From: a virus
Lineage: Duplodnaviria > Caudoviricetes
Strand: one strand, 5' to 3'
IMG/VR virus record: IMGVR_UViG_3300033463_010483
Coordinates: 3,523-67,522 of that record
Length of the DNA: 64,000 nt
This document shows positions 3,100 to 50,482 of this stretch, piece by piece. The notes beneath the pieces were generated by a model. The model made no database searches and had not been told where the DNA came from. It saw only the letters and a list, made by a program, of their open reading frames with translations. The position numbers were made by a program, and so were the translations under genes. Every line of letters starts with the position of its first letter. The first letter of the stretch is position 1.

Positions 3100-3756
3100 T
3101 TACGAGCGAGCCAACAACTTGCAGATCGTCGCACCGGGGACTGCGAAGCCAATACCTGTTAGGGATGGGGACTGACCGAACGGAAATGTTGCAACGCCCA
3201 CGGCGATCCCGACGACATTCCCATGTTTATCGAACAATGGGCCACCGCTGATACCTGGGACGATTGTCATGTCGAGAGAGATAATCTCTTTCCACATCCC
3301 GCTTTTGAACATGCCGCTGTTCACGTGCCCCCAATAACTGGTGAATTCAGTATTGAGCGGAGAACCGGTTGCGATAACCTCTTCACCCACATTAGGTATA
3401 CGGCAAGACAGCGGTGAATTGCCAAGGATTTCAGGCTTGGAAGCCATGATCACCGAGACGTCATAGTCCCTGTTGTACCAGAGGACTTCCGCGGGCTGTT
3501 CAACGCCAAGGCTGTTCTTGAGAGATACAACGCCATCAACTGCGACATGACCGGCAGTGAGGACGTAGCCACCACCGATGGAAACGCCGGACCCATGACC
3601 ATTGGCGAGAATGACTTTAACGACAGACGATGGACGTGGCTTTGGGGGGGGCATGGTGGGGAAATTCGCTGCAACACCAATAGATACCGCGGCAATGGCA
3701 GCAAAAATGCACATGAAGACGCGCTGAAACGCGTTCAGTCGGGGAGCAAATGACAT
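3100..3756 (-). CDS. Exported trypsin-like (S1) serine protease
   Basis: Catalytic triad motifs LTAGHV, DYDVSVI, GISGGP; N-terminal hydrophobic signal/anchor. Confidence 0.88.
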   Translation of the reverse strand: MSFAPRLNAFQRVFMCIFAAIAAVSIGVAANFPTMPPPKPRPSSVVKVILANGHGSGVSIGGGYVLTAGHVAVDGVVSLKNSLGVEQPAEVLWYNRDYDVSVIMASKPEILGNSPLSCRIPNVGEEVIATGSPLNTEFTSYWGHVNSGMFKSGMWKEIISLDMTIVPGISGGPLFDKHGNVVGIAVGVATFPFGQSPSLTGIGFAVPGATICKLLARS

Positions 3757-3810: not shown

Positions 3811-4104
3811 CTAGCGCGATGGCCGAGTTGGCTTGGCGGGCACAAATGCCTGATCGATCCGCTCATTGGTTCGATCAATCTTGGCCCCGAGGCCCTCTAT
3901 CGCCTTCATCATGCGGTCGGTCTGTTCAGTCATCCCAGCCTTTGTGATGTACATTTCAGCGATATGAATCTTGAACTCATAGAGCTTTTTGTCGGCCGAT
4001 GCCTGATTGGTACTAATCTGGCTTTGAAGGCGCCACCAAAGGCCACCAAGCGCGCCAATCACCAAGACCAGCGTTGCGATTTGATCCCACGTGATTGGGC
4101 CCAT
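3811..4104 (-). CDS. Single-TM lysis-cassette membrane protein
   Basis: MGPITWDQIATLVLVIGALGGLWW then coiled coil; TAATG overlap with the o-spanin stop. Confidence 0.7.
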   Translation of the reverse strand: MGPITWDQIATLVLVIGALGGLWWRLQSQISTNQASADKKLYEFKIHIAEMYITKAGMTEQTDRMMKAIEGLGAKIDRTNERIDQAFVPAKPTRPSR

Positions 4105-4295
4105 TATGGCTTTACCCCGCAAAGCTGGGTTAGCTTACGATTATGGGAGAGAATTGCCGAAACTTCCGCATCCGTCAGATGGGCGATGGTCTCTTTGCTC
4201 GGGCGAATAGGTTTTGCGATAGAACAGAATGAACCGCCCGTGGTCTGGCAGGATGCCAGTGTCAGCATCAAGAGCACCCCGATAGCAATCTTCAT
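4104..4295 (-). CDS. o-spanin (Rz1-like lipoprotein)
   Basis: MKIAIGVLLMLTLAS-C lipobox; ATGA overlap with the i-spanin. Confidence 0.8.
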   Translation of the reverse strand: MKIAIGVLLMLTLASCQTTGGSFCSIAKPIRPSKETIAHLTDAEVSAILSHNRKLTQLCGVKP

Positions 4296-4534
4296 GATTT
4301 CGACCACTTCGAAAGCTCAGCGCGATTGGCTTCCGGTGTGTTTCCAGCCACGGCCTCATCGATCTTCTGCGCCTCAGTCATCGCGGCAGCATCGCGTGAT
4401 GTTTGCTTGTCACGTTCTGATTTGACGCCACTGGAGCGCCCTTTGAACCAAGCAGCGCCGACGGCAGCCAGAACCGCAAGAAGGCCAGCAATAAGCGTGT
4501 TTGAGCCGGTAAACAGCGAAAGGAGCGCAGTCAT
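4292..4534 (-). CDS. i-spanin (Rz-like)
   Basis: N-terminal TM then helical periplasmic segment; between holin and lipoprotein. Confidence 0.75.
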   Translation of the reverse strand: MTALLSLFTGSNTLIAGLLAVLAAVGAAWFKGRSSGVKSERDKQTSRDAAAMTEAQKIDEAVAGNTPEANRAELSKWSKS

Positions 4535-4746
4535 TTGGGGTTCTCCGGAGTTAGCGACAACAAAGCCCGAGTGGCACGGTTAATGCGCCACCGGTCAAAG
4601 AACCACCATCCCAAGGTGAAGGCATTCACACCCAAACCGATAAATGCATCAGATGCACTCGAATTGAGCAAACCGTGCCCCATCAATACGCCAGCAAGCA
4701 TGGTGAGAATTTGCCGAAAGATCGGAATAAACAGGTCAATCGTCAT
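4531..4746 (-). CDS. Putative holin
   Basis: 71 aa, two TM segments, basic C-terminus; directly after the endolysin. Confidence 0.7.
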   Translation of the reverse strand: MTIDLFIPIFRQILTMLAGVLMGHGLLNSSASDAFIGLGVNAFTLGWWFFDRWRINRATRALLSLTPENPK

Positions 4747-5425
4747 GATTGGGTCCTCTTAATAGTGATGAGATGAGGGAAAGAAAAGACGACACAACCG
4801 AACTGGATGCTGGAACCGCGGGAGCAGATGACTGAACCGGAGCGGCAGCTGGTGCTGTTGCTACAGGTGATGTCACCGGAGGCTGAATCGGTGCTGGTGC
4901 GGCTGGAGTGACTATAGGTGGCGCAACAGGCGGCGTCTCACCATATCCATCGGTCTTGAGCAGAGCGTCATATTGAGTGGCGTATCCAGCAATCAGGCCA
5001 AATGTCTTATAGTCCTTGGGATTGACGATTTTGCGCGCATTGGAAAAGTCCGAGGCGGCAAGCGTCATGTAGTCCGATAGCTTTTTGCCCGTGAACCATC
5101 CTTCACTCATGCCAAGCACGATGATTTCGGCAGAATATGCTGGGATCAGAAGCTTCTTGGGATCAGATACAAAATCGATGCCAAGTTCCTTAGTGGCGCG
5201 CTGGTAGTTGTACAACCATGTAAGCTGAACGAAACCCATCCCAACATACGGATAATAGGATTTGCTCTTGAGGTATGTTTCGCCACCATATTCGCGCACC
5301 GGCACCATTGTATGCGCAGTCTCGTGGTAAGCGGTTGCAAGCACATATGCTGCCTGATTGCGAAAAAGCCCATGCTTCAGGCATGAATCTACGATCAACC
5401 GCGTGTTACCGAGGGTGAGGTTCAT
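4736..5425 (-). CDS. Endolysin, GH19-like lysozyme fold
   Basis: AYVLATAYHET...GMGFVQLTWLYNY; start reassigned to 5425 (AGGA RBS); Pro/Ala-rich tail. Confidence 0.85.
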   Translation of the reverse strand: MNLTLGNTRLIVDSCLKHGLFRNQAAYVLATAYHETAHTMVPVREYGGETYLKSKSYYPYVGMGFVQLTWLYNYQRATKELGIDFVSDPKKLLIPAYSAEIIVLGMSEGWFTGKKLSDYMTLAASDFSNARKIVNPKDYKTFGLIAGYATQYDALLKTDGYGETPPVAPPIVTPAAPAPIQPPVTSPVATAPAAAPVQSSAPAVPASSSVVSSFLSLISSLLRGPNHDD

Positions 5426-35373: not shown

Positions 35374-35445
35374 TGGAGCGGATGACCGGAATCGAACCGA
35401 TCTTCACAGCTTGGAAGGCTGTTGCATCTCCTTGATGACACCCGC
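35374..35445 (-). tRNA. Phage tRNA-Gly(TCC), CCA encoded, short D-arm
   Basis: GCGGGTG/CATCCGC acceptor stem, ACAGC-CTTCCAA-GCTGT anticodon arm, ATCGG-TTCGATT-CCGGT T-arm, 3' TCCA; 72 nt. Confidence 0.9.
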
Positions 35446-37666: not shown

Positions 37667-38152
37667 TCATCCTGCATCCTTATCTGGCACACCCGTAGGT
37701 GGCAGTTGATAGAAAATGAAATCTCCATCGTCACCGACGCCCGCAACCTTGGCTTTACCGGGTTTTGCACCCTTCTTCGGTGTTCCCGATACGGGAATGC
37801 CCCGGCCCTTGGCGGCCTGCGCTTGAGCGAACTGTTTTTTGTTCTGCTCGTAATTATCGGTGATGGCGTAGAGCCTTGGCACAGACGCACCAGGCTCAAC
37901 GATCAGCGCATAGACCGTGTGAATCTTGTCATCCGCATAGGCAAATACCAGTCTGAAATCTGCAGGGATGCGGGCGGCAATCGAGTAGCCCAGCAGTGAT
38001 CCGCCATACTGATAGACTGCAAATGGCCACGCAAATGCGAGCGGAATAAACACGGCCAGATAGAGGCGGTAGCGTGGATCGACCCGCAGGACCAATAGCC
38101 ACAGCGCGAGCGATGACGTGAGAACACCGGAGAGGATGGTGAGGGTAATCAT
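37667..38152 (-). CDS. Two-TM membrane protein, last gene of the ExbB/MotA-like cluster
   Basis: Hydrophobic residues about 2-24 and 29-50, then a soluble domain; ATGA-coupled. Confidence 0.72.
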   Translation of the reverse strand: MITLTILSGVLTSSLALWLLVLRVDPRYRLYLAVFIPLAFAWPFAVYQYGGSLLGYSIAARIPADFRLVFAYADDKIHTVYALIVEPGASVPRLYAITDNYEQNKKQFAQAQAAKGRGIPVSGTPKKGAKPGKAKVAGVGDDGDFIFYQLPPTGVPDKDAG

Positions 38153-38379
38153 GGTTCAACTTCCCTCCCATCGAAGTGGCGCTCTATCCATTCAAGCTCT
38201 ATCGGTCGCCACACCTGCCACCAATGGACGCGGCGCTTTCTGGGCTTCCAGTTCCCATCCTTGTAGGCTTCCTCGTAGAGCGAGATCAGGGACGGCCCTA
38301 AATCAGGGCTCAGGACTTCTCGTTCGTAGTACTTTCCCCGGAAGGTACGATCCACTTTAGTGATGGTAAGCTGCATCAT
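38149..38379 (-). CDS. Soluble hypothetical protein inside the membrane cluster
   Basis: 76 aa, ATGA overlaps at both ends. Confidence 0.6.
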   Translation of the reverse strand: MMQLTITKVDRTFRGKYYEREVLSPDLGPSLISLYEEAYKDGNWKPRKRRVHWWQVWRPIELEWIERHFDGREVEP

Positions 38380-38963
38380 TTCGCGGCTCCTATGAGTTGA
38401 ACCGGCGACACATAGACAGAGTCCACACGCCCATCCTGAGTGATGGTGAAGTTGACGAAAGTCTGTTCCTGTCCCTGCTCGGTGAATTCCTTTGTAGCCT
38501 GTGTCACATTGGAGAATGGATTGAGCTTGGTGACTCTGATGGTCACATGGTCAACAAATTCAGGCGCGCTATTCTTACGGTACTGGTGGGCATTGACGAC
38601 GTATTCACCCGGAACGATCGCCCGAAGTGTTACGGTTTCCTGCCGAGATTTGGATTCTATGGTTGAGCCATCAGCCTGTATGACCGTGTTGTTGCGGCCC
38701 ATGTTGTCCTGATCATAGGTCATATAGCCGTTGCGGGTCTTACCGAAGAAAACAATCTCACCGGTCGGTCCACGGACATACAAGTCCATATCGTCCGCGC
38801 TGCCGTCATCCCATGTCATCTGGATTGAGAATTCAGCCTTCGTGGGGATACCGACCTCTTCGGCTTTCTTTGGCTTGCCAGCCTCCATAACAACGATGGT
38901 TGCTAGGAGAGCGAACACAACACCCATGGCAAGGTCAAAGAATGGCGTTGGGAGTGCCTTCAT
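38376..38963 (-). CDS. MotB/ExbD/TolR-like Asp-bearing TM helix fused to a YfaP/DUF2135-like domain
   Basis: MKALPTPFF-D-LAMGVVFALLATIVVM; then MTWDDGSADDMDLYVRGPTG..V.F; start 38963 by ATGA coupling. Confidence 0.72.
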   Translation of the reverse strand: MKALPTPFFDLAMGVVFALLATIVVMEAGKPKKAEEVGIPTKAEFSIQMTWDDGSADDMDLYVRGPTGEIVFFGKTRNGYMTYDQDNMGRNNTVIQADGSTIESKSRQETVTLRAIVPGEYVVNAHQYRKNSAPEFVDHVTIRVTKLNPFSNVTQATKEFTEQGQEQTFVNFTITQDGRVDSVYVSPVQLIGAAK

Positions 38964-39385
38964 GGCTCCCGCACTCCCAAAATCTTGAGCTGCGTCCGCA
39001 GAAATAGAGCCGCGAAAATACCTGTAATGGAGCAAAGGAATTTGGTGCTCACACCCTCAAGCAAGTGCTGCCGCCACTCACCGGCGGCGTCCATATCGCG
39101 CAATGCCTGAAAGGCCAGCACCAGACCGATAAAAGTCCCGGCGATTCCAACTCTTTCGAAGACATCGCAGAGATACCAAAAGGCACTTCCAGATGCATAA
39201 CGTGGTCGATATAGTTCATATCCAACCGCTGCTGTTGCCAATAAATAGGCCGCTAGGATGGTCAGTCCGAGATAGGTCACGTCTTGGGTCCACAGCGCCA
39301 CGATAAACCCCATCAGCGCCGCAACGCCAACGACGGTTAGAGTGAGGCATACGAATATAAGCCACTGCAATGTCATGCGGGTCAT
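38960..39385 (-). CDS. MotA/TolQ/ExbB proton-channel-like membrane protein
   Basis: Four hydrophobic segments; GIAGTFIGLVLAF and GVSTKFLCSITGIFAAL match the GxxGTxxG and TxxG channel helices. Confidence 0.78.
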   Translation of the reverse strand: MTRMTLQWLIFVCLTLTVVGVAALMGFIVALWTQDVTYLGLTILAAYLLATAAVGYELYRPRYASGSAFWYLCDVFERVGIAGTFIGLVLAFQALRDMDAAGEWRQHLLEGVSTKFLCSITGIFAALFLRTQLKILGVREP

Positions 39386-39690
39386 ACTTCAAACTCCTCG
39401 TTTTGATCTGCCGAAACATTGATGGGCTTAAACAGCGCTTCCGCCGCATTGCGATGTTGGCTGGATACCCGTTCACCTGCCCGGAGCATTACCGGTTGTT
39501 CCGTCTCATAAAGTGCCCGCCAAGCGGCACATTCGGCTTCCGCTTTTGATGGAAACACTTCCGGCGAGCTGGTCCTGCGGCCATCTGATCCAACCTTCTT
39601 CACCTCGTAATACTCAGCCTTCCAGACCAGACGGTATTCACCGATCCAGCCGAAACCCTTGTCAATCGCACGTGCATCTGAGCGGTTCAT
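39382..39690 (-). CDS. Phage hypothetical protein
   Basis: 102 aa, ATGA-coupled to the helicase. Confidence 0.6.
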   Translation of the reverse strand: MNRSDARAIDKGFGWIGEYRLVWKAEYYEVKKVGSDGRRTSSPEVFPSKAEAECAAWRALYETEQPVMLRAGERVSSQHRNAAEALFKPINVSADQNEEFEV

Positions 39691-41144
39691 TCGAAAAATC
39701 CTTCAAAGGATTCTGGCATGTCGGCCGTACTGGATGTGAATGAGGTGTATTCAGCCTCGAAGTTGATCTGCTGACTTTGACCAGGCTCGCCTCTTCGGCG
39801 CTTGTGGTTGATGATCCAAGCTTTTCCGCGTGATGTTTCATAATCACGGATCATCTTGTCTCGCTTGGTCTCCACACCATCGCGGGCTCGTTCTGGCGGA
39901 CAGATTGGGATAAGCTCTTTGTAGAGTGGCTCCGGCCGATAGAGCGAAACCCAGATGTCAAGGTTTTGCTTCACGCTGCCACCACCGTATGCGTCACCCA
40001 TCATTGGGCGAATTGATCCACCAGTACGCCACCGCGCTTTCCAATCGTCATTTCTTTGGATGAGGGTAACAACCGCAACATCGAGCGATTTCCCGATGCC
40101 CTTGAGCCCACGATAAAGAGCATTGATGCGCTCGGCGAAAATATCTTTTGGATTGGGTAGAGCGATCATTTTAGCATGGTCGATGACAACCACGTCGAGC
40201 CCGACTGATTTCTTCATCGCCTCCATTTTGATGCGGATGTCGGATAGTGAGCAATCAGCAAATCCAACGATATCAAACGGGATATCGACAGATTTCATCA
40301 TCTCAGCTTCGATGCGGTCCTTCTCCCGTGAATCCAGATTGAATGCGTCAAGGCGATCGAGACTGATCCGGCTGGCTTGAGCCGCGGCCTGAAGAGCCGC
40401 TTCCTCGTCTGTGATCTCGATAGAGAAAAATGCCGACCGGAACCCTGCCAATGCGGCATGTCTGCATTGTTGGAGAGCGAATGAGGTTTTGCCGCCGCCC
40501 GAGTCCGACATGACACCGATGTGATTGCCGCGCCTGATATCCCCTGCCACACGGGTAATCTCCGGGAGAAACCATGGAATGAGCGATGTGGTTGACAGAG
40601 AAGCCTTAGCAACGCGATCAATGGCTTTGGGGAGCAATACCCCGTACTTGAGTGAACCGGCGCGCTCGTTGCCTTCCTGTGCGATCTTCGTGAGAATATC
40701 CGCAGTGGACGATATTATCTTCTCGGGCGTCATATCGACTGGCATATTTCTCGCCAAGCCGTCTAGGTCATGCGCAGCGGTGATCAGCATCCGGCGTGAC
40801 CAGATTTCAATGATCGCGCGTCCAAAATCATATACACCCACAGTATTCACGGCATTCGCCGCCAAGCTGGCCATGTACTCATTTACGCTCATGTCACCAA
40901 TCATCAGATCGGTTGGCAAGTAACCCTTCATGGTAACGGGATTGGCTGCCCTGCCCTCGGCAATCATCTTGCCAGCAGTGTCGTAAATGGCTTGATGCAA
41001 CTCTTCGGTGAAATGCTGGGGCTTGAGAAAACCGGCAACGCGCCAATATGTTTCATTCGAGATCAGAATGGATCCAAGCAATGCCTGTTCGGCTTCCATC
41101 GCGTCGGGTAGTGCGGGTCGGATGTTAGCTGCCTGATAATTCAT
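39687..41144 (-). CDS. dnaB: Replicative helicase, DnaB-like
   Basis: EAEQALLGSIL N-terminal domain, SGGGKT Walker A, FFSIE, VVVIDH Walker B, GGGSVKQNLD. Confidence 0.88.
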   Translation of the reverse strand: MNYQAANIRPALPDAMEAEQALLGSILISNETYWRVAGFLKPQHFTEELHQAIYDTAGKMIAEGRAANPVTMKGYLPTDLMIGDMSVNEYMASLAANAVNTVGVYDFGRAIIEIWSRRMLITAAHDLDGLARNMPVDMTPEKIISSTADILTKIAQEGNERAGSLKYGVLLPKAIDRVAKASLSTTSLIPWFLPEITRVAGDIRRGNHIGVMSDSGGGKTSFALQQCRHAALAGFRSAFFSIEITDEEAALQAAAQASRISLDRLDAFNLDSREKDRIEAEMMKSVDIPFDIVGFADCSLSDIRIKMEAMKKSVGLDVVVIDHAKMIALPNPKDIFAERINALYRGLKGIGKSLDVAVVTLIQRNDDWKARWRTGGSIRPMMGDAYGGGSVKQNLDIWVSLYRPEPLYKELIPICPPERARDGVETKRDKMIRDYETSRGKAWIINHKRRRGEPGQSQQINFEAEYTSFTSSTADMPESFEGFFE

Positions 41145-41145
41145 A

Positions 41146-42498
41146 CTATTCCCCCATCATCCGAACAAGGCGAGCTGCGCCGGCGGAGCCTCTTGTGGCG
41201 AGGCGAGTTGAGAGAGTGCGGAACGCATACGCTGATTCCAGCGGGACAACTCCGTTGCCGAGCATGCGAAGTCTGTCCACGCGAGCAACGTCCAACCTTG
41301 AGGCCAGCCCATTAGCCACTCGACGAAAAGCGGGTTCAAGCTCCGGCGCTCTTTCGAGGACGTTTCGCCAACTTGTAAGATCGTTGGGTCCGGGTGGGAA
41401 AAGGCCTGTCCCGTTAACGTGAGTGTCTTCTTCGTTTGTTGCGGGTTTGCGTACTGCCACTGTCCCACTTCGTTCGATCGAGGTGTCGCCCATTGATCTG
41501 ACAGTGCAAACGCCTGCCCCTTCAGCAATGGTTCGTCCGATCTCATTCCCGACCGAGCCATCCTGCCGCCTGTCGTGTCTGCTACCGATGGAGTTGACCA
41601 TTGGGAGGCTTGCGCTGGCAGAGGCACCCCTCCCGCTCCGAAACTCTGATTGGGACCGCCCTTCTCCCCGTCCGACGCGCGAGGTGTACTCCATACATCC
41701 GAACTCTTGGAATTCACTGTAGATGTCGAGGGCTGATCGTCGATCGACCAAACTTGCTCCGTCGCGTAATCCAGCCGATCCCCGCGCATCTTGCCGTCCG
41801 ATCGTTCCATCGTCGGGCCGCTCCCCTTCCAATCGTTCGCTGTTGGCGTCGGCCAGGCCGACGGATGAAACTTCTGTACGGCCGTTTGAAGGTTGTCTCC
41901 GCCGTCCCTGCCGTTCGATCCTGGCCCCGTCACCATATTGGCCGTCGGCGTTGGCCTGGCCAACGTTTCGGTCTGAGACTGCGAGGATGAAGAGGCGCTC
42001 TCTCTCATGAGACGCGCCGACTTCTGACGCCGTGAACAATCCTCCCTCAACCGCAAAGCCCAATCGGTGAAGGTCTCGTCTGACCCGCTCAGCGCCGCCC
42101 GATGAGAGCATTCCTCGAACGTTTTCAATGAGGACGAACCAGACACCAGACTGGACGATGATGCGACGTGCCGTTGACCAGAGATCGCGCTCGTCTTCTT
42201 CGGCAAGCCGTTTTCCGGCAAGACTATGCGGCTGGCACGGGATGCCGCCAATGAGGCCGTCCACTGCGCCACGCCATTGGCGGCCGTTAAATGTTCTGGC
42301 ATCGCTCCATATAGGCGCTGAAGCCAAGAGGCACGCCTCCATAGCTGATACCAATTGCGCGACCGCGAAGGCTTCCCTCTCGACCATGCAGACAGTTCGA
42401 GCGCCTTGAACTGCCAGTTCGAGGCCGAGATCGAGACCAGCTCCACCGGTGCAGATGGAGAGAATGTTGAGACTGTCGGAACGAAGAGCCACATTCAT
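41146..42498 (-). CDS. DNA cytosine-5 methyltransferase, catalytic frame
   Basis: Motif I SICTGGAGLD, IV GGIPCQPHS, VI ENV, VIII HERERLF, X RLRMLGNGVVP. Confidence 0.9.
   Translation of the reverse strand: MNVALRSDSLNILSICTGGAGLDLGLELAVQGARTVCMVEREAFAVAQLVSAMEACLLASAPIWSDARTFNGRQWRGAVDGLIGGIPCQPHSLAGKRLAEEDERDLWSTARRIIVQSGVWFVLIENVRGMLSSGGAERVRRDLHRLGFAVEGGLFTASEVGASHERERLFILAVSDRNVGQANADGQYGDGARIERQGRRRQPSNGRTEVSSVGLADANSERLEGERPDDGTIGRQDARGSAGLRDGASLVDRRSALDIYSEFQEFGCMEYTSRVGRGEGRSQSEFRSGRGASASASLPMVNSIGSRHDRRQDGSVGNEIGRTIAEGAGVCTVRSMGDTSIERSGTVAVRKPATNEEDTHVNGTGLFPPGPNDLTSWRNVLERAPELEPAFRRVANGLASRLDVARVDRLRMLGNGVVPLESAYAFRTLSTRLATRGSAGAARLVRMMGE
41157..42494 (-). CDS. Alternative-frame polypeptide nested in the C5-MTase gene (WxTP repeats plus motif-IX-like segment)
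   Basis: 445 codons open on the same strand; RPTP/WPTP/WSTP/WSTP/WATP repeats; SLNPLFVEWLMGWPQGWT; ATG directly follows the upstream TGA. Confidence 0.72.
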   Translation of the reverse strand: MWLFVPTVSTFSPSAPVELVSISASNWQFKALELSAWSRGKPSRSRNWYQLWRRASWLQRLYGAMPEHLTAANGVAQWTASLAASRASRIVLPENGLPKKTSAISGQRHVASSSSLVSGSSSLKTFEECSHRAALSGSDETFTDWALRLREDCSRRQKSARLMRESASSSSQSQTETLARPTPTANMVTGPGSNGRDGGDNLQTAVQKFHPSAWPTPTANDWKGSGPTMERSDGKMRGDRLDYATEQVWSIDDQPSTSTVNSKSSDVWSTPRASDGEKGGPNQSFGAGGVPLPAQASQWSTPSVADTTGGRMARSGMRSDEPLLKGQAFALSDQWATPRSNEVGQWQYANPQQTKKTLTLTGQAFSHPDPTILQVGETSSKERRSLNPLFVEWLMGWPQGWTLLAWTDFACSATELSRWNQRMRSALSQLASPQEAPPAQLALFG

Positions 42499-46184: not shown

Positions 46185-47540
46185 TTAAGTTCTGCGGGTT
46201 GGATGCATGTATTCGGATTGCGGGTCACCGATGCGCCAAGCCTGTGCAGCCAAGGCCGTTTCAATTGGCAGGCCATCAATGTCGGAAACCTTTGGAACGC
46301 CTTCGAATATCGTCCCGTTTCTCGGGCATTTTGCCTGAAGGTATCGACCCGTCTCGGGGAATCCTGGGAGTGTCACCTCTACCAGAGCCCCCATGTCGCT
46401 TGTCGGGTCGCCGTCAATAATGCGAGGCTTGAGTGCTGGGATCATGCGAGCGCCAAGAATCTGCATTCCCGCTGCACGTTGTTCCACATTCTCTGCCTTC
46501 AATACTTCGACCGGGTCTAGATTCTTACGATCCTCGATCCAATGCGACGGAACCTTGACGCCATGCCAAAAATACAAAGCCCAGCCGTCGCGCCATCTGT
46601 GGGATGGTCCTGTTTCACAATGTGGCCGGTTCTGATCGTCAACGCGCAAAACTTCAGGAAAATCTGACACAAGGCAGAATTCCTCATGCATCACGCGGAA
46701 GCCGCCATGGATCGCTGCTTGTTCCCAATGCGCATAGGCCTCGTGGCTGCTTAATTCCAAACCAAGGATGTCGCGGCACGATGTGAGATAGCAATCGTAT
46801 CCGGCCCACATATTGCCGCCTTGGTACGCACCGTACCAACGCTTTGAACATTCAATGCCGAGCTGTCCGGCCAAGTCATGACAAGCGACCGCTTCACGTT
46901 TTTCTACATCATCGGTTGCTGCATCGGTTGCTGCACGGGTTGCTGCACCGGTTGCTGCATCGGTTGCTGCACGGGTTGCTGCACGGGTTGCTGCACCGGT
47001 TGCTGCACCGGTTGCTGCATCGGTTGCTGCACGGGTTGCTGCATAGGTTGCTGCATAGGTTGCTGCACGGGTTGCTGCACGGGTTGCTGCACGGGTTGCT
47101 GCATAGGTTGCTGCATCGGTTGCTGCATCGGTTGCTGCATCGGTTGCTGCATCGGTTGCTGCATCGGTTGCTGCATAGGTTGCTGCACGGGTTGCTGCAT
47201 CGGTTGCTGCACCCTTACCATTCTTCCTCACATGCCAAATGGCTGCTGACGCTCCATAAGCAAAAGCCATAACCATTGGTGATGGAACGATAATGACTCG
47301 CGGTTCTTTCAGATTGGCTGCAGCATAAATGCCCTTGATCGCCGGAATGATTTTGTCCGGTTCAATCGGATCGGTGCGCATGGCAATGCCAATCCATTTT
47401 TGGGAATGCTCATCCATGCGGAGCTTTTCTTCGGGCGTAATCCCGCCGTGGGCCTTGGATGGTGTGCGAATGATTTTTGACATGCTCAATGCTTTCTTCG
47501 TTGACGTCGCTTTTCCAAACCGAGCAGCAGCCATTGCCAT
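46185..47540 (-). CDS. DUF6745-like protein with central (AATx)25 repeat
   Basis: C-terminal RPHCETGPSHRWRDGWALYFWHGV..ENVEQR; alternative start at 47483. Confidence 0.78.
   Translation of the reverse strand: MAMAAARFGKATSTKKALSMSKIIRTPSKAHGGITPEEKLRMDEHSQKWIGIAMRTDPIEPDKIIPAIKGIYAAANLKEPRVIIVPSPMVMAFAYGASAAIWHVRKNGKGAATDAATRAATYAATDAATDAATDAATDAATDAATYAATRAATRAATRAATYAATYAATRAATDAATGAATGAATRAATRAATDAATGAATRAATDAATDDVEKREAVACHDLAGQLGIECSKRWYGAYQGGNMWAGYDCYLTSCRDILGLELSSHEAYAHWEQAAIHGGFRVMHEEFCLVSDFPEVLRVDDQNRPHCETGPSHRWRDGWALYFWHGVKVPSHWIEDRKNLDPVEVLKAENVEQRAAGMQILGARMIPALKPRIIDGDPTSDMGALVEVTLPGFPETGRYLQAKCPRNGTIFEGVPKVSDIDGLPIETALAAQAWRIGDPQSEYMHPTRRT
46911..47210 (-). repeat. 25 x 12-bp tandem repeat GCAGCAACC-(GAT/CGT/TAT/GGT)
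   Basis: Exactly 300 bp; variation confined to one codon per unit. Confidence 0.95.
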
Positions 47541-49806: not shown

Positions 49807-49840
49807 TGACAGCATTTTTTATTGGCCTTAGCGATTGAGC

Positions 49841-50482
49841 ATGAAGAATCTCAAGGAAATTCGAGACCAGCTCAAACTCACACAAGCCGAAATGGCTAAG
49901 CGTTTAGGCACGTCGCAACCGCAGTATCAACGGCTTGAACGCGGGAAACGGCCCATGTCAAAAAAGTGGGCTCTTAAAATAGAATCTGAGTTTGGTATCC
50001 CAGCTGCGCAAATATTGTTTACTGATGAGGATGATACTTCTGTCCCAGCCCGCATGGTTAAAGTTCTAGGATATGTGCAAGCGGGCGAATGGGAGGAGAC
50101 TTGGGAGTTGTCAGAAGAAGATCAATACGATGTACCTATACCGCATGATACTTCACTAAACGGATATCCACTATATGCTGCGGAAACACGCGGCCCCTCG
50201 ATGAACAGGCGATACCCTGAAGGAACTGTATTAGTTTTTACTCACATCATCGAAACGCATGAGGATCTGATACCTGGGAAACGCTACATTGTTGAGCGCG
50301 AACGGTCAGACGGCTTGAAAGAGGCAACCGTAAAGATTTTATGGTTTGATGATCAAAGGAAACCATGGCTCCTGCCGGAATCGACAGACCCGAGGTTTCA
50401 AGAACCAATCGCTTTGAATGGCGATGATGGTGATACAATCCGCATAGTTGGACGCGTCCGGTATGCCGTTTCTAGAGAATAG
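49841..50482 (+). CDS. cI: CI-like repressor (XRE HTH plus S24 peptidase)
   Basis: LTQAEMAKRLGTSQPQYQRLERG; VQAG cleavage site, GPSM serine and TVK lysine motifs. Confidence 0.92.
   Translation: MKNLKEIRDQLKLTQAEMAKRLGTSQPQYQRLERGKRPMSKKWALKIESEFGIPAAQILFTDEDDTSVPARMVKVLGYVQAGEWEETWELSEEDQYDVPIPHDTSLNGYPLYAAETRGPSMNRRYPEGTVLVFTHIIETHEDLIPGKRYIVERERSDGLKEATVKILWFDDQRKPWLLPESTDPRFQEPIALNGDDGDTIRIVGRVRYAVSRE

Follow-up and report, generated by a model that had tools for sequence, protein, structure and literature searches.

A conserved three-gene membrane module of phages and bacteria that resembles a divergent MotA/ExbB/TolQ-type motor

INTRODUCTION

Can a phage carry an ion-driven membrane motor of its own, and where would such a motor do its work? 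The question is raised by a short gene cluster in IMG/VR record IMGVR_UViG_3300033463_010483, a provirus of a tailed phage (Duplodnaviria; Caudoviricetes). The DNA analysed here (the window, a stretch of 64,000 nucleotides covering positions 3,523 to 67,522 of the record) makes up most of this 67.5-kb record, and four small open reading frames (ORFs), which we call A, B, C and D, follow one another on its minus strand. A sequence-only reading of the window had taken them for a phage-encoded ion-channel module of the MotA/ExbB plus MotB type with a third membrane subunit, and had suggested, among other roles, that it could poison host motors. Our analysis shows that three of the four genes, A, B and D, recur in this order in more than 150 independent loci. 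As far as sequence can tell, their products probably form an autonomous, motor-type inner-membrane complex with periplasmic output, which would represent a branch of the MotA/ExbB/TolQ '5:2' superfamily that has three components and has not been described before. The earlier remark that no function had been described for such a module agrees with our literature search, which found no description of the trio; recent surveys of MotAB, ExbBD and TolQR note uncharacterised homologues, not the A-B-D module or its phage copies (PMC12505986, PMC12204202).

RESULTS

Three of the four coupled genes form the conserved module

All four ORFs are present on the minus strand, A at 38960–39385, B at 38376–38963, C at 38149–38379 and D at 37667–38152, and the view of them as translationally coupled is borne out: at every junction in the chain dnaB, 102-amino-acid (aa) ORF, A, B, C, D the stop and start codons overlap as ATGA, and a GGAG-type ribosome site lies upstream. 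The conserved unit is nevertheless smaller than the four-gene module first proposed. When gene neighbourhoods were surveyed, a relative of A was found beside B in 83 and a relative of D in 84 of 85 viral or metagenome loci, and all three genes were present in 75 of 80 bacterial loci, the other five being cut contigs. Across loci with the co-conserved trio the identity of B falls to about 25–30%. Gene C (76 aa), soluble and lying between B and D as described, has no family match in Pfam, PHROGs, PADLOC or NCBIfam and no relative in any of the 85 viral or metagenome loci. The closest relative of the window trio, locus L168 (83% identity in B, 69% in A and 73% in D), carries unrelated small ORFs at both junctions, one of 74 aa between A and B, the other of 55 aa between B and D. 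Because C has no relative elsewhere and different small ORFs occupy the same junctions in the nearest relative, it falls outside the module; by this comparison of loci C is lineage-specific filler and the conserved module is A-B-D. C was also considered as a fourth subunit, and this was dropped for its lack of conservation.

At E ≤ 1e-3 a profile of B retrieved 2246 of 1.84 billion cluster representatives, and 581 still matched at E ≤ 1e-30. A scan with one peptide pattern placed B in at least 99 viral contigs, and a peptide-pattern scan placed it in at least 478 bacterial species-representative genomes. The trio proteins are all annotated as hypothetical. Despite the abundance of B, neither B nor D has a family in Pfam, NCBIfam, PHROGs or PADLOC, and of nine A, B and D proteins taken from three lineages of viruses none has a family in PHROGs, weak phrog_1735 matches of two B proteins (those of the window and of locus L036) aside.

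Gene A belongs to the MotA/TolQ/ExbB superfamily

The product of gene A (141 aa) has four hydrophobic segments, taken as transmembrane (TM) helices, and its charge distribution fits an N-terminus inside the cell, which is the MotA topology. Of the two channel motifs that the sequence-only reading had named, the first stands: TM3 carries G80-x-x-G83-T84-x-x-G87. The second, read as TxxG, is S119-I-T-G122 in TM4 of the window copy, at a place where the family consensus is T-T-L-x-G. Against the Pfam model MotA_ExbB (PF01618) A scores 21.8 bits (E 1.6e-4; cut-off 22.9), and a relative in locus L159 clears this cut-off with 30.9 bits. Eighteen PADLOC models of ZorA match the last two helices of A, the best being ZorA2 (E 1.2e-8), and NCBIfam gives weak ZorA and MotA matches. 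A profile of 52 A-family members (A4), searched against all PDB sequences, produced 26 matches, 23 of which are TolQ, ZorA, MotA, PomA or ExbB chains (best E 1.6e-5). On these Pfam, PADLOC, NCBIfam and PDB profile matches A is, as had been supposed, a divergent member of the MotA/TolQ/ExbB superfamily, an assignment that holds at family level and is borderline for the window copy.

The same PDB alignments set the family motifs G-T-V-x-G and T-T-L-x-G-L on two conserved threonines of TolQ, which we take to be T145 and T178. In the Ton and Tol systems these TolQ threonines face the Asp of TolR. The residues of the window copy that align with them are T84 (codon 39134–39136) and S119 (codon 39029–39031), which are likely the pore residues of A. 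Threonine is retained at position 84 in all 36 viral copies sampled, and position 119 is Thr in 34 of the 36 and Ser in the window copy. No large cytoplasmic domain separates the TM helices: the loop between TM2 and TM3 has about 20 aa in the window copy and 20–45 aa in viral copies, and the protein ends 11 residues past its last TM helix. Bacterial copies are longer, with an insert of 70–90 aa at this loop.

Gene B combines an Asp-bearing helix with a predicted periplasmic beta-sandwich

In the predicted product of gene B (195 aa) a single TM helix at the N-terminus is joined by a short linker to a periplasmic beta-sandwich. The protein starts M-K-A-L-P-T-P-F-F-D-L-A-M, and the claim that this F-D-L-x-M helix bears a conserved Asp is well supported, since Asp10 (codon 38934–38936) is retained in 100 of 101 diverse relatives. 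Its kinship with the known partners of A-type subunits is harder to establish. Among the 101 relatives ExbD (PF02472) matched one and MotB_plug (PF13677) two, all with E > 0.003. Searched against the PDB, the B-family profile met no chain of ExbD, TolR or MotB, and a phmmer search there with the first 35 residues of B gave nothing. For profile comparison with hhalign we built an ExbD/TolR alignment from the PF02472 loci of five bacterial genomes that also bear the trio. The sole local alignment obtained with the first 45 residues of B sets Asp10 on the ExbD/TolR Asp (P 4.6e-4), so the register is right and the statistics are weak.

In the AlphaFold model of B (predicted local distance difference test score, pLDDT, 70.8) one helix is followed by an all-beta domain. 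This is neither an ExbD-type alpha-beta domain nor an OmpA-like peptidoglycan-binding domain, which agrees with the earlier statement that the periplasmic part is no peptidoglycan-binding domain. That reading had also likened it to YfaP/DUF2135, a label not far off the mark but weakly backed: PF09906 (DUF2135/YfaP) does not match the window protein at E ≤ 1 and matches two of the 101 relatives with E 0.0021 or weaker, and PPC models of Pfam match five of the 101. The ESM Atlas clusters nearest to B carry the automatic name 'YfaP (DUF2135 family)' and share no Pfam family, and ten longer B-family proteins (257–327 aa) have no Pfam domain. The nearest fold is that of TerD. In an exhaustive structure comparison TerD ranked first, with matches over residues 41–193 at Z 9.5 (residues 43–192, root-mean-square deviation 3.5 over 128 residues) and 8.5, the next match reaching Z 6.1; Foldseek agrees weakly. 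Residues W51, D58, D60, D86, G89, E109 and G119 are invariant among the relatives, and D87 and N124 nearly so. The invariant D58, D60, D86 and E109, together with D87 and N124, suggest a putative metal (Ca2+) site like those of TerD and PPC proteins.

Gene D is a two-helix protein with a predicted flexible periplasmic linker

The third membrane subunit was recognised correctly as a two-TM protein. In the structure model of D (161 aa; pLDDT 83.4) two TM helices form a hairpin and are followed by a domain with strands at 66–74, 79–85 and 93–97, a helix at 101–116 and a strand at 121–125. A disordered linker rich in G, K and P then leads to a final strand at 145–149, to which the conserved C-terminal motif F-I-F-Y-Q-L-P-P gives rise. 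The N-terminus is nearly devoid of Lys and Arg and the loop between the helices averages 1.5 such residues per six; since this basic loop should be cytoplasmic and the N-terminus outside, the soluble domain should be periplasmic. The beta-beta-beta-alpha-beta order of the domain is that of an oligonucleotide/oligosaccharide-binding (OB)-like barrel. Fold searches gave no significant match (best Foldseek E 0.08), and a wide search matched the helical hairpin only. The hallmarks of TonB and TolA are absent from D, which has two TM helices, no conserved His or other polar residue in them and no Pfam match, so that the likeness of its low-complexity linker to TonB and TolA is at most functional. 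A tblastn search with two marine D proteins found nothing among GenBank phages.

Among the structural neighbours that the ESM Atlas lists for D is an all-viral cluster of 297 aa (template modelling score 0.57 over D residues 6–161), every member of which carries Phage_lysozyme. A fusion of D to a lysozyme was looked for by sequence. No fused form was found among D-family proteins of 386–2000 aa (the range of 282–386 aa lay outside this search), 39 further viral loci had no D-containing open frame longer than 243 aa, and PF00959, present in two of 48 trio-bearing viral records, was fused to D in neither. We set this candidate aside, as its only support is the structure-only neighbour and it was not met by sequence in the samples.

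The trio is also a bacterial operon, which argues against a decoy

The module was first seen as a phage one. It is indeed present in many phages; it is not a phage peculiarity. In a quick tree (maximum likelihood, 149 B proteins), which has an arbitrary root and from which we claim no direction of transfer, the copies of Burkholderiales, Nevskiaceae and Acetobacteraceae form one group (support 87) that follows taxonomy, and viral copies fall into several deeper, more diverse groups. This tree indicates that the three taxa also pass the trio on vertically, as a chromosomal operon. The window B pairs with a contig of a Xanthobacteraceae metagenome-assembled genome (MAG) (support 99). Eight MAG contigs labelled as marine alphaproteobacteria or SAR11 (L128, L139, L141, L145, L155, L157, L159 and L163) have nearly identical trios that nest among viral copies; these may be phage contigs binned with the host, or prophages.

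A fourth gene overlaps the end of D in 52 of the 80 bacterial loci (among L093–L167, and in L002) and in no viral locus. The L002 copy (3994–4791) shows a signal peptide of the lipobox type and a weak match of the DUF3108 kind. An inner-membrane motor accompanied by a periplasmic protein and a lipoprotein recalls Tol-Pal, which argues for a self-contained envelope machine and not for a decoy. Many of the loci with the fourth gene continue with a pyrroloquinoline quinone (PQQ) methanol/ethanol-type dehydrogenase, a MoxJ-like binding protein and cytochrome c.

These observations bear on the idea that the miniature A protein, alone or with B, joins the TolQ, ExbB, MotA or ZorA pentamers of the host and disables them. 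The best family-level matches of A are ZorA models, A is cut down to its TM core and the trio lies on the lytic side of the phage, all of which such a poison would explain. Yet A, B and D are co-conserved over the deep divergence described above (B identity to ~25–30%), and a chromosomal operon that tracks taxonomy in bacteria also owning canonical ExbD/TolR genes is not what would be expected of a decoy. Its own Asp partner and a third subunit would be superfluous to it, and co-assembly with distant host motors is unlikely for a protein whose pairwise identity to other members of the A family is 15–25%. Since bacteria inherit the same trio vertically as an operon of their own, the poisoning of Ton, Tol or Zorya motors, as once suggested, is disfavoured; we consider it very unlikely. 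The outcomes that it would have, namely counter-defence against Zorya or a block of the Ton/Tol-dependent entry of rival phages and colicins, are in our view similarly improbable.

Setting of the trio in the window phage

The chain begins with a DnaB-like replicative helicase (39687–41144, minus strand; phrog_19, E 1.3e-59), linked to A by the 102-aa ORF (39382–39690, minus strand), which matches phrog_32205, a family of unassigned function (E 4.9e-16), and belongs to the context, outside the module. A CI-type repressor with HTH_3 and Peptidase_S24 domains (49835–50482) is encoded on the plus strand and diverges from the long lytic chain of the minus strand. In a consensus scan of 35–42 kb, promoter-like and terminator-like sites were no commoner than in shuffled sequence. 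Since the chain follows dnaB directly, has no convincing internal promoter or terminator and is opposed by a CI-type repressor on the other strand, the module should be expressed from the lytic side of the switch, in line with the position given to it earlier. Neighbours of the trio include DnaB, methyltransferases, RuvC and phage ORFs.

Some other features of the window deserve mention. A tRNA-Gly(TCC) gene (35374–35445, minus strand) lies in an ORF-poor gap between the early/middle and the late genes. Within a cytosine-methyltransferase gene two frames on the same strand, 41146–42498 (450 aa) and 41157–42494 (445 aa), overlap fully, and the 450-aa frame matches DNA methyltransferase PHROGs. 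A nucleotide search with the locus gave no match among GenBank phages or plasmids. The right flank of the record yields only an 84% match to a cysteine-hydrolase gene and is not from E. coli.

The locus is contained in four RNA-seq runs as near-whole-phage contigs of flat depth and without differences. These runs come from four studies with different labelled organisms, and the phage (window 33000–52000) is found in them at 100% identity, in near-complete contigs. One contig of 66,340 nt closes on itself, so the element also occurs as a circular or permuted genome of ~66 kb, in unrelated libraries. The contigs of all four runs break at 46850–47170, where the depth doubles and only pieces of 40–60 nt map, which points to a short internal repeat region. 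This place lies inside a 451-aa ORF (46185–47540) with a weak tape-measure-like PHROG match.

Phage carriers, a silent arm and a linked importer

The only GenBank phages found with the trio are phages of Rhizobium and Sinorhizobium (up to 29 records). In the temperate Sinorhizobium meliloti phage 16-3 (L242, 21624–24512) A, B and D are p038, p040 and p042, as confirmed by profiles (E 3.9e-12, 1.9e-30 and 6.8e-12), and the small ORFs p039 and p041 sit at the A-B and B-D junctions. The 16-3 trio lies between the tail-fibre/immX region and attP, 3.7 kb from immX. By its coordinates it falls within an arm termed 'silent' (PMC10460002), which, as that paper reports of Dallmann et al. 1979, was genetically silent in classical genetics. 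A function that is accessory and dispensable fits this position. A trypsin-like protease of the periplasm, p036, is encoded just upstream of the 16-3 trio, and in RHph_N3_13 (L086) a similar peptidase lies 2 kb downstream of it.

An accessory role would suit a complex that does no mechanical work at all, being a gated ion leak or a static membrane assembly. Such a reading would also account for the lack of a cytoplasmic or peptidoglycan-anchoring domain. The Asp and both pore positions are kept in viral copies, however, which points to the coupled mechanism of the superfamily, and the strong conservation of the periplasmic domains in B and D suggests that the output is specific, be it mechanical or by binding. 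We regard a non-motor complex as rather unlikely, and the same holds for the roles that it might play (timing of lysis, tuning of membrane potential or exclusion of superinfecting DNA).

An SbmA/BacA-type inner-membrane importer (PF05992, E 4.6e-133) follows the trio in 11 marine T4-like contigs (~7 distinct), among them L006, L011, L026, L062–L065, L073, L075 and L076. It lies 16–350 bp after D in 10 of the 11 loci, among which the identity of B goes down to 36%. ClpS is often found between D and the importer in marine T4-like loci, with ClpP, HSP20 and Fe-S assembly genes nearby. This linkage might be explained if the trio, in the manner of an auxiliary metabolic gene, energised import through the outer membrane with D in the place of TonB; the flexible linker and the conserved C-terminal strand of D could dock to a partner by strand addition. 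Against this, neither a TonB-dependent receptor nor a TonB_C domain was seen, D spans the membrane twice and has no conserved His in its TM helices, and no transporter is linked to the trio in the window phage, the Rhizobium phages or 16-3. Uptake of this kind is, in our judgement, unlikely.

DISCUSSION

The trio resembles several known systems and coincides with none. Like TolQ-TolR-TolA and ExbB-ExbD-TonB, it consists of three adjacent genes with the G-x-x-G-T-x-x-G and T-x-x-G helices in the A subunit, a partner whose single N-terminal TM helix bears an Asp (essential in Ton/Tol), and, as the third component, a periplasmic protein that is anchored in the membrane and has a flexible linker; a peptidoglycan-anchoring OmpA domain is absent. 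It differs in that A has four TM helices, as MotA does, and almost no cytoplasmic domain, B has a TerD/PPC-like sandwich in place of the ExbD/TolR alpha-beta fold, D is a two-TM hairpin with no SHLS-type His helix and no TonB_C or TolA_III domain, and no trio protein passes the Ton/Tol family models. With MotAB and PomAB it shares a four-TM A subunit with its N-terminus inside, the conserved Asp in the B helix and overlapping A and B genes. Unlike them, it has no torque-generating cytoplasmic domain, no recognised plug helix and no OmpA-like peptidoglycan-binding domain, whereas it has an obligatory third subunit and is carried by phages.

The likeness to ZorAB lies in the profile matches of A, the best of which are to TM cores of ZorA (E 1.2e-8). 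We considered membership in Zorya and rejected it: the long ZorA tail, the peptidoglycan-binding domain of ZorB and ZorC, ZorD and ZorE are all missing, B has no PADLOC match, and the setting is a phage and not a defence island. GldLM and PorLM also combine a small A-type subunit with a B-type subunit that delivers the output through beta-rich periplasmic domains, but GldL is a two-TM protein with a Glu and GldM bears an Arg, whereas the trio has the Asp on B and its A is homologous to MotA/TolQ. TerD, PPC and DUF2135 proteins share with B the fold and the clustered invariant Asp and Glu residues as in Ca2+ sites. TerD proteins, however, are soluble, cytoplasmic and not linked to MotA-type genes, with sequence identity to B of 11–14%, and few members of the B family match PPC or DUF2135 in Pfam, all of them below threshold.

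These comparisons allow a mechanism to be proposed for a motor-type complex of A, B and D. A pentamer of A would form a bare ring of four-TM subunits, almost without a cytoplasmic domain, and the helices of a B dimer would serve as an axle within its pore. Protonation and deprotonation of Asp10 of B against Thr84 and Ser119 of A might turn ion flow into rotation or a power stroke. As A has no cytoplasmic face, the work would have to be delivered in the periplasm. Candidates for the output there are the acidic, probably Ca2+-binding TerD/PPC-like sandwich of B, and D with its flexible linker and C-terminal strand, which may parallel the way in which ExbD and TolR work with TonB and TolA. In the window phage the trio would be translated from a long lytic-side transcript shared with the replication genes. 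Most likely the trio acts on the envelope, either peptidoglycan or outer membrane, during infection. Hints at what it acts on come from the SbmA/BacA-type importer, from the trypsin-like proteases near the trio in 16-3 and RHph_N3_13, and from the lysozyme-bearing structural neighbour of D.

It should be noted that several results weigh against a motor of this kind. The window copy of A falls 1.1 bits short of the Pfam cut-off. None of the Pfam, NCBIfam or PADLOC models of ExbD, TolR, MotB, ZorB or OmpA matched the window B, the hhalign probability of the match between B and ExbD/TolR is just 7–33% (33% for the alignment that pairs the two Asp residues), and in the five trio-bearing bacterial genomes the PF02472 sites are all distinct from the trio loci. 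In seven of 11 bacterial A copies sampled Lys replaces the pore Thr at position 84, so the chemistry there may differ from that of Ton/Tol. To our knowledge all characterised A-type subunits carry a substantial cytoplasmic domain, and we know of no 5:2 motor without one on its A subunit. The RNA-seq runs, given the flat whole-phage depth and possible carry-over of DNA, are uninformative on transcription. A predicted 1:1:1 complex of A, B and D gave a score of 0.01 for D as a partner, which is evidence neither way. As a separate observation, the Lys in Burkholderiales-type A copies places a charge in the membrane, opposite the Asp of B.

A broader proposition, that phages of many kinds (temperate, T4-like, T7-like and jumbo) carry a minimal ion-driven rotary motor for periplasmic work on the cell wall or outer membrane of the infected host, such as placing or powering a wall-cutting activity, is one that we advance tentatively, as a possibility. 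The cultured carriers, the Rhizobium phages and 16-3, make the question open to ordinary genetics. If the complex is a working motor, it would be the barest natural form of the MotA/ExbB architecture, with ring subunits of ~140 aa that lack a cytoplasmic domain, and a compact object in which to test how ion flow becomes movement. It would then be the smallest 5:2-type machine known and an undescribed class of phage-encoded molecular machine, and the use of membrane energy for mechanical work in the envelope would be a function of a new kind for phages.

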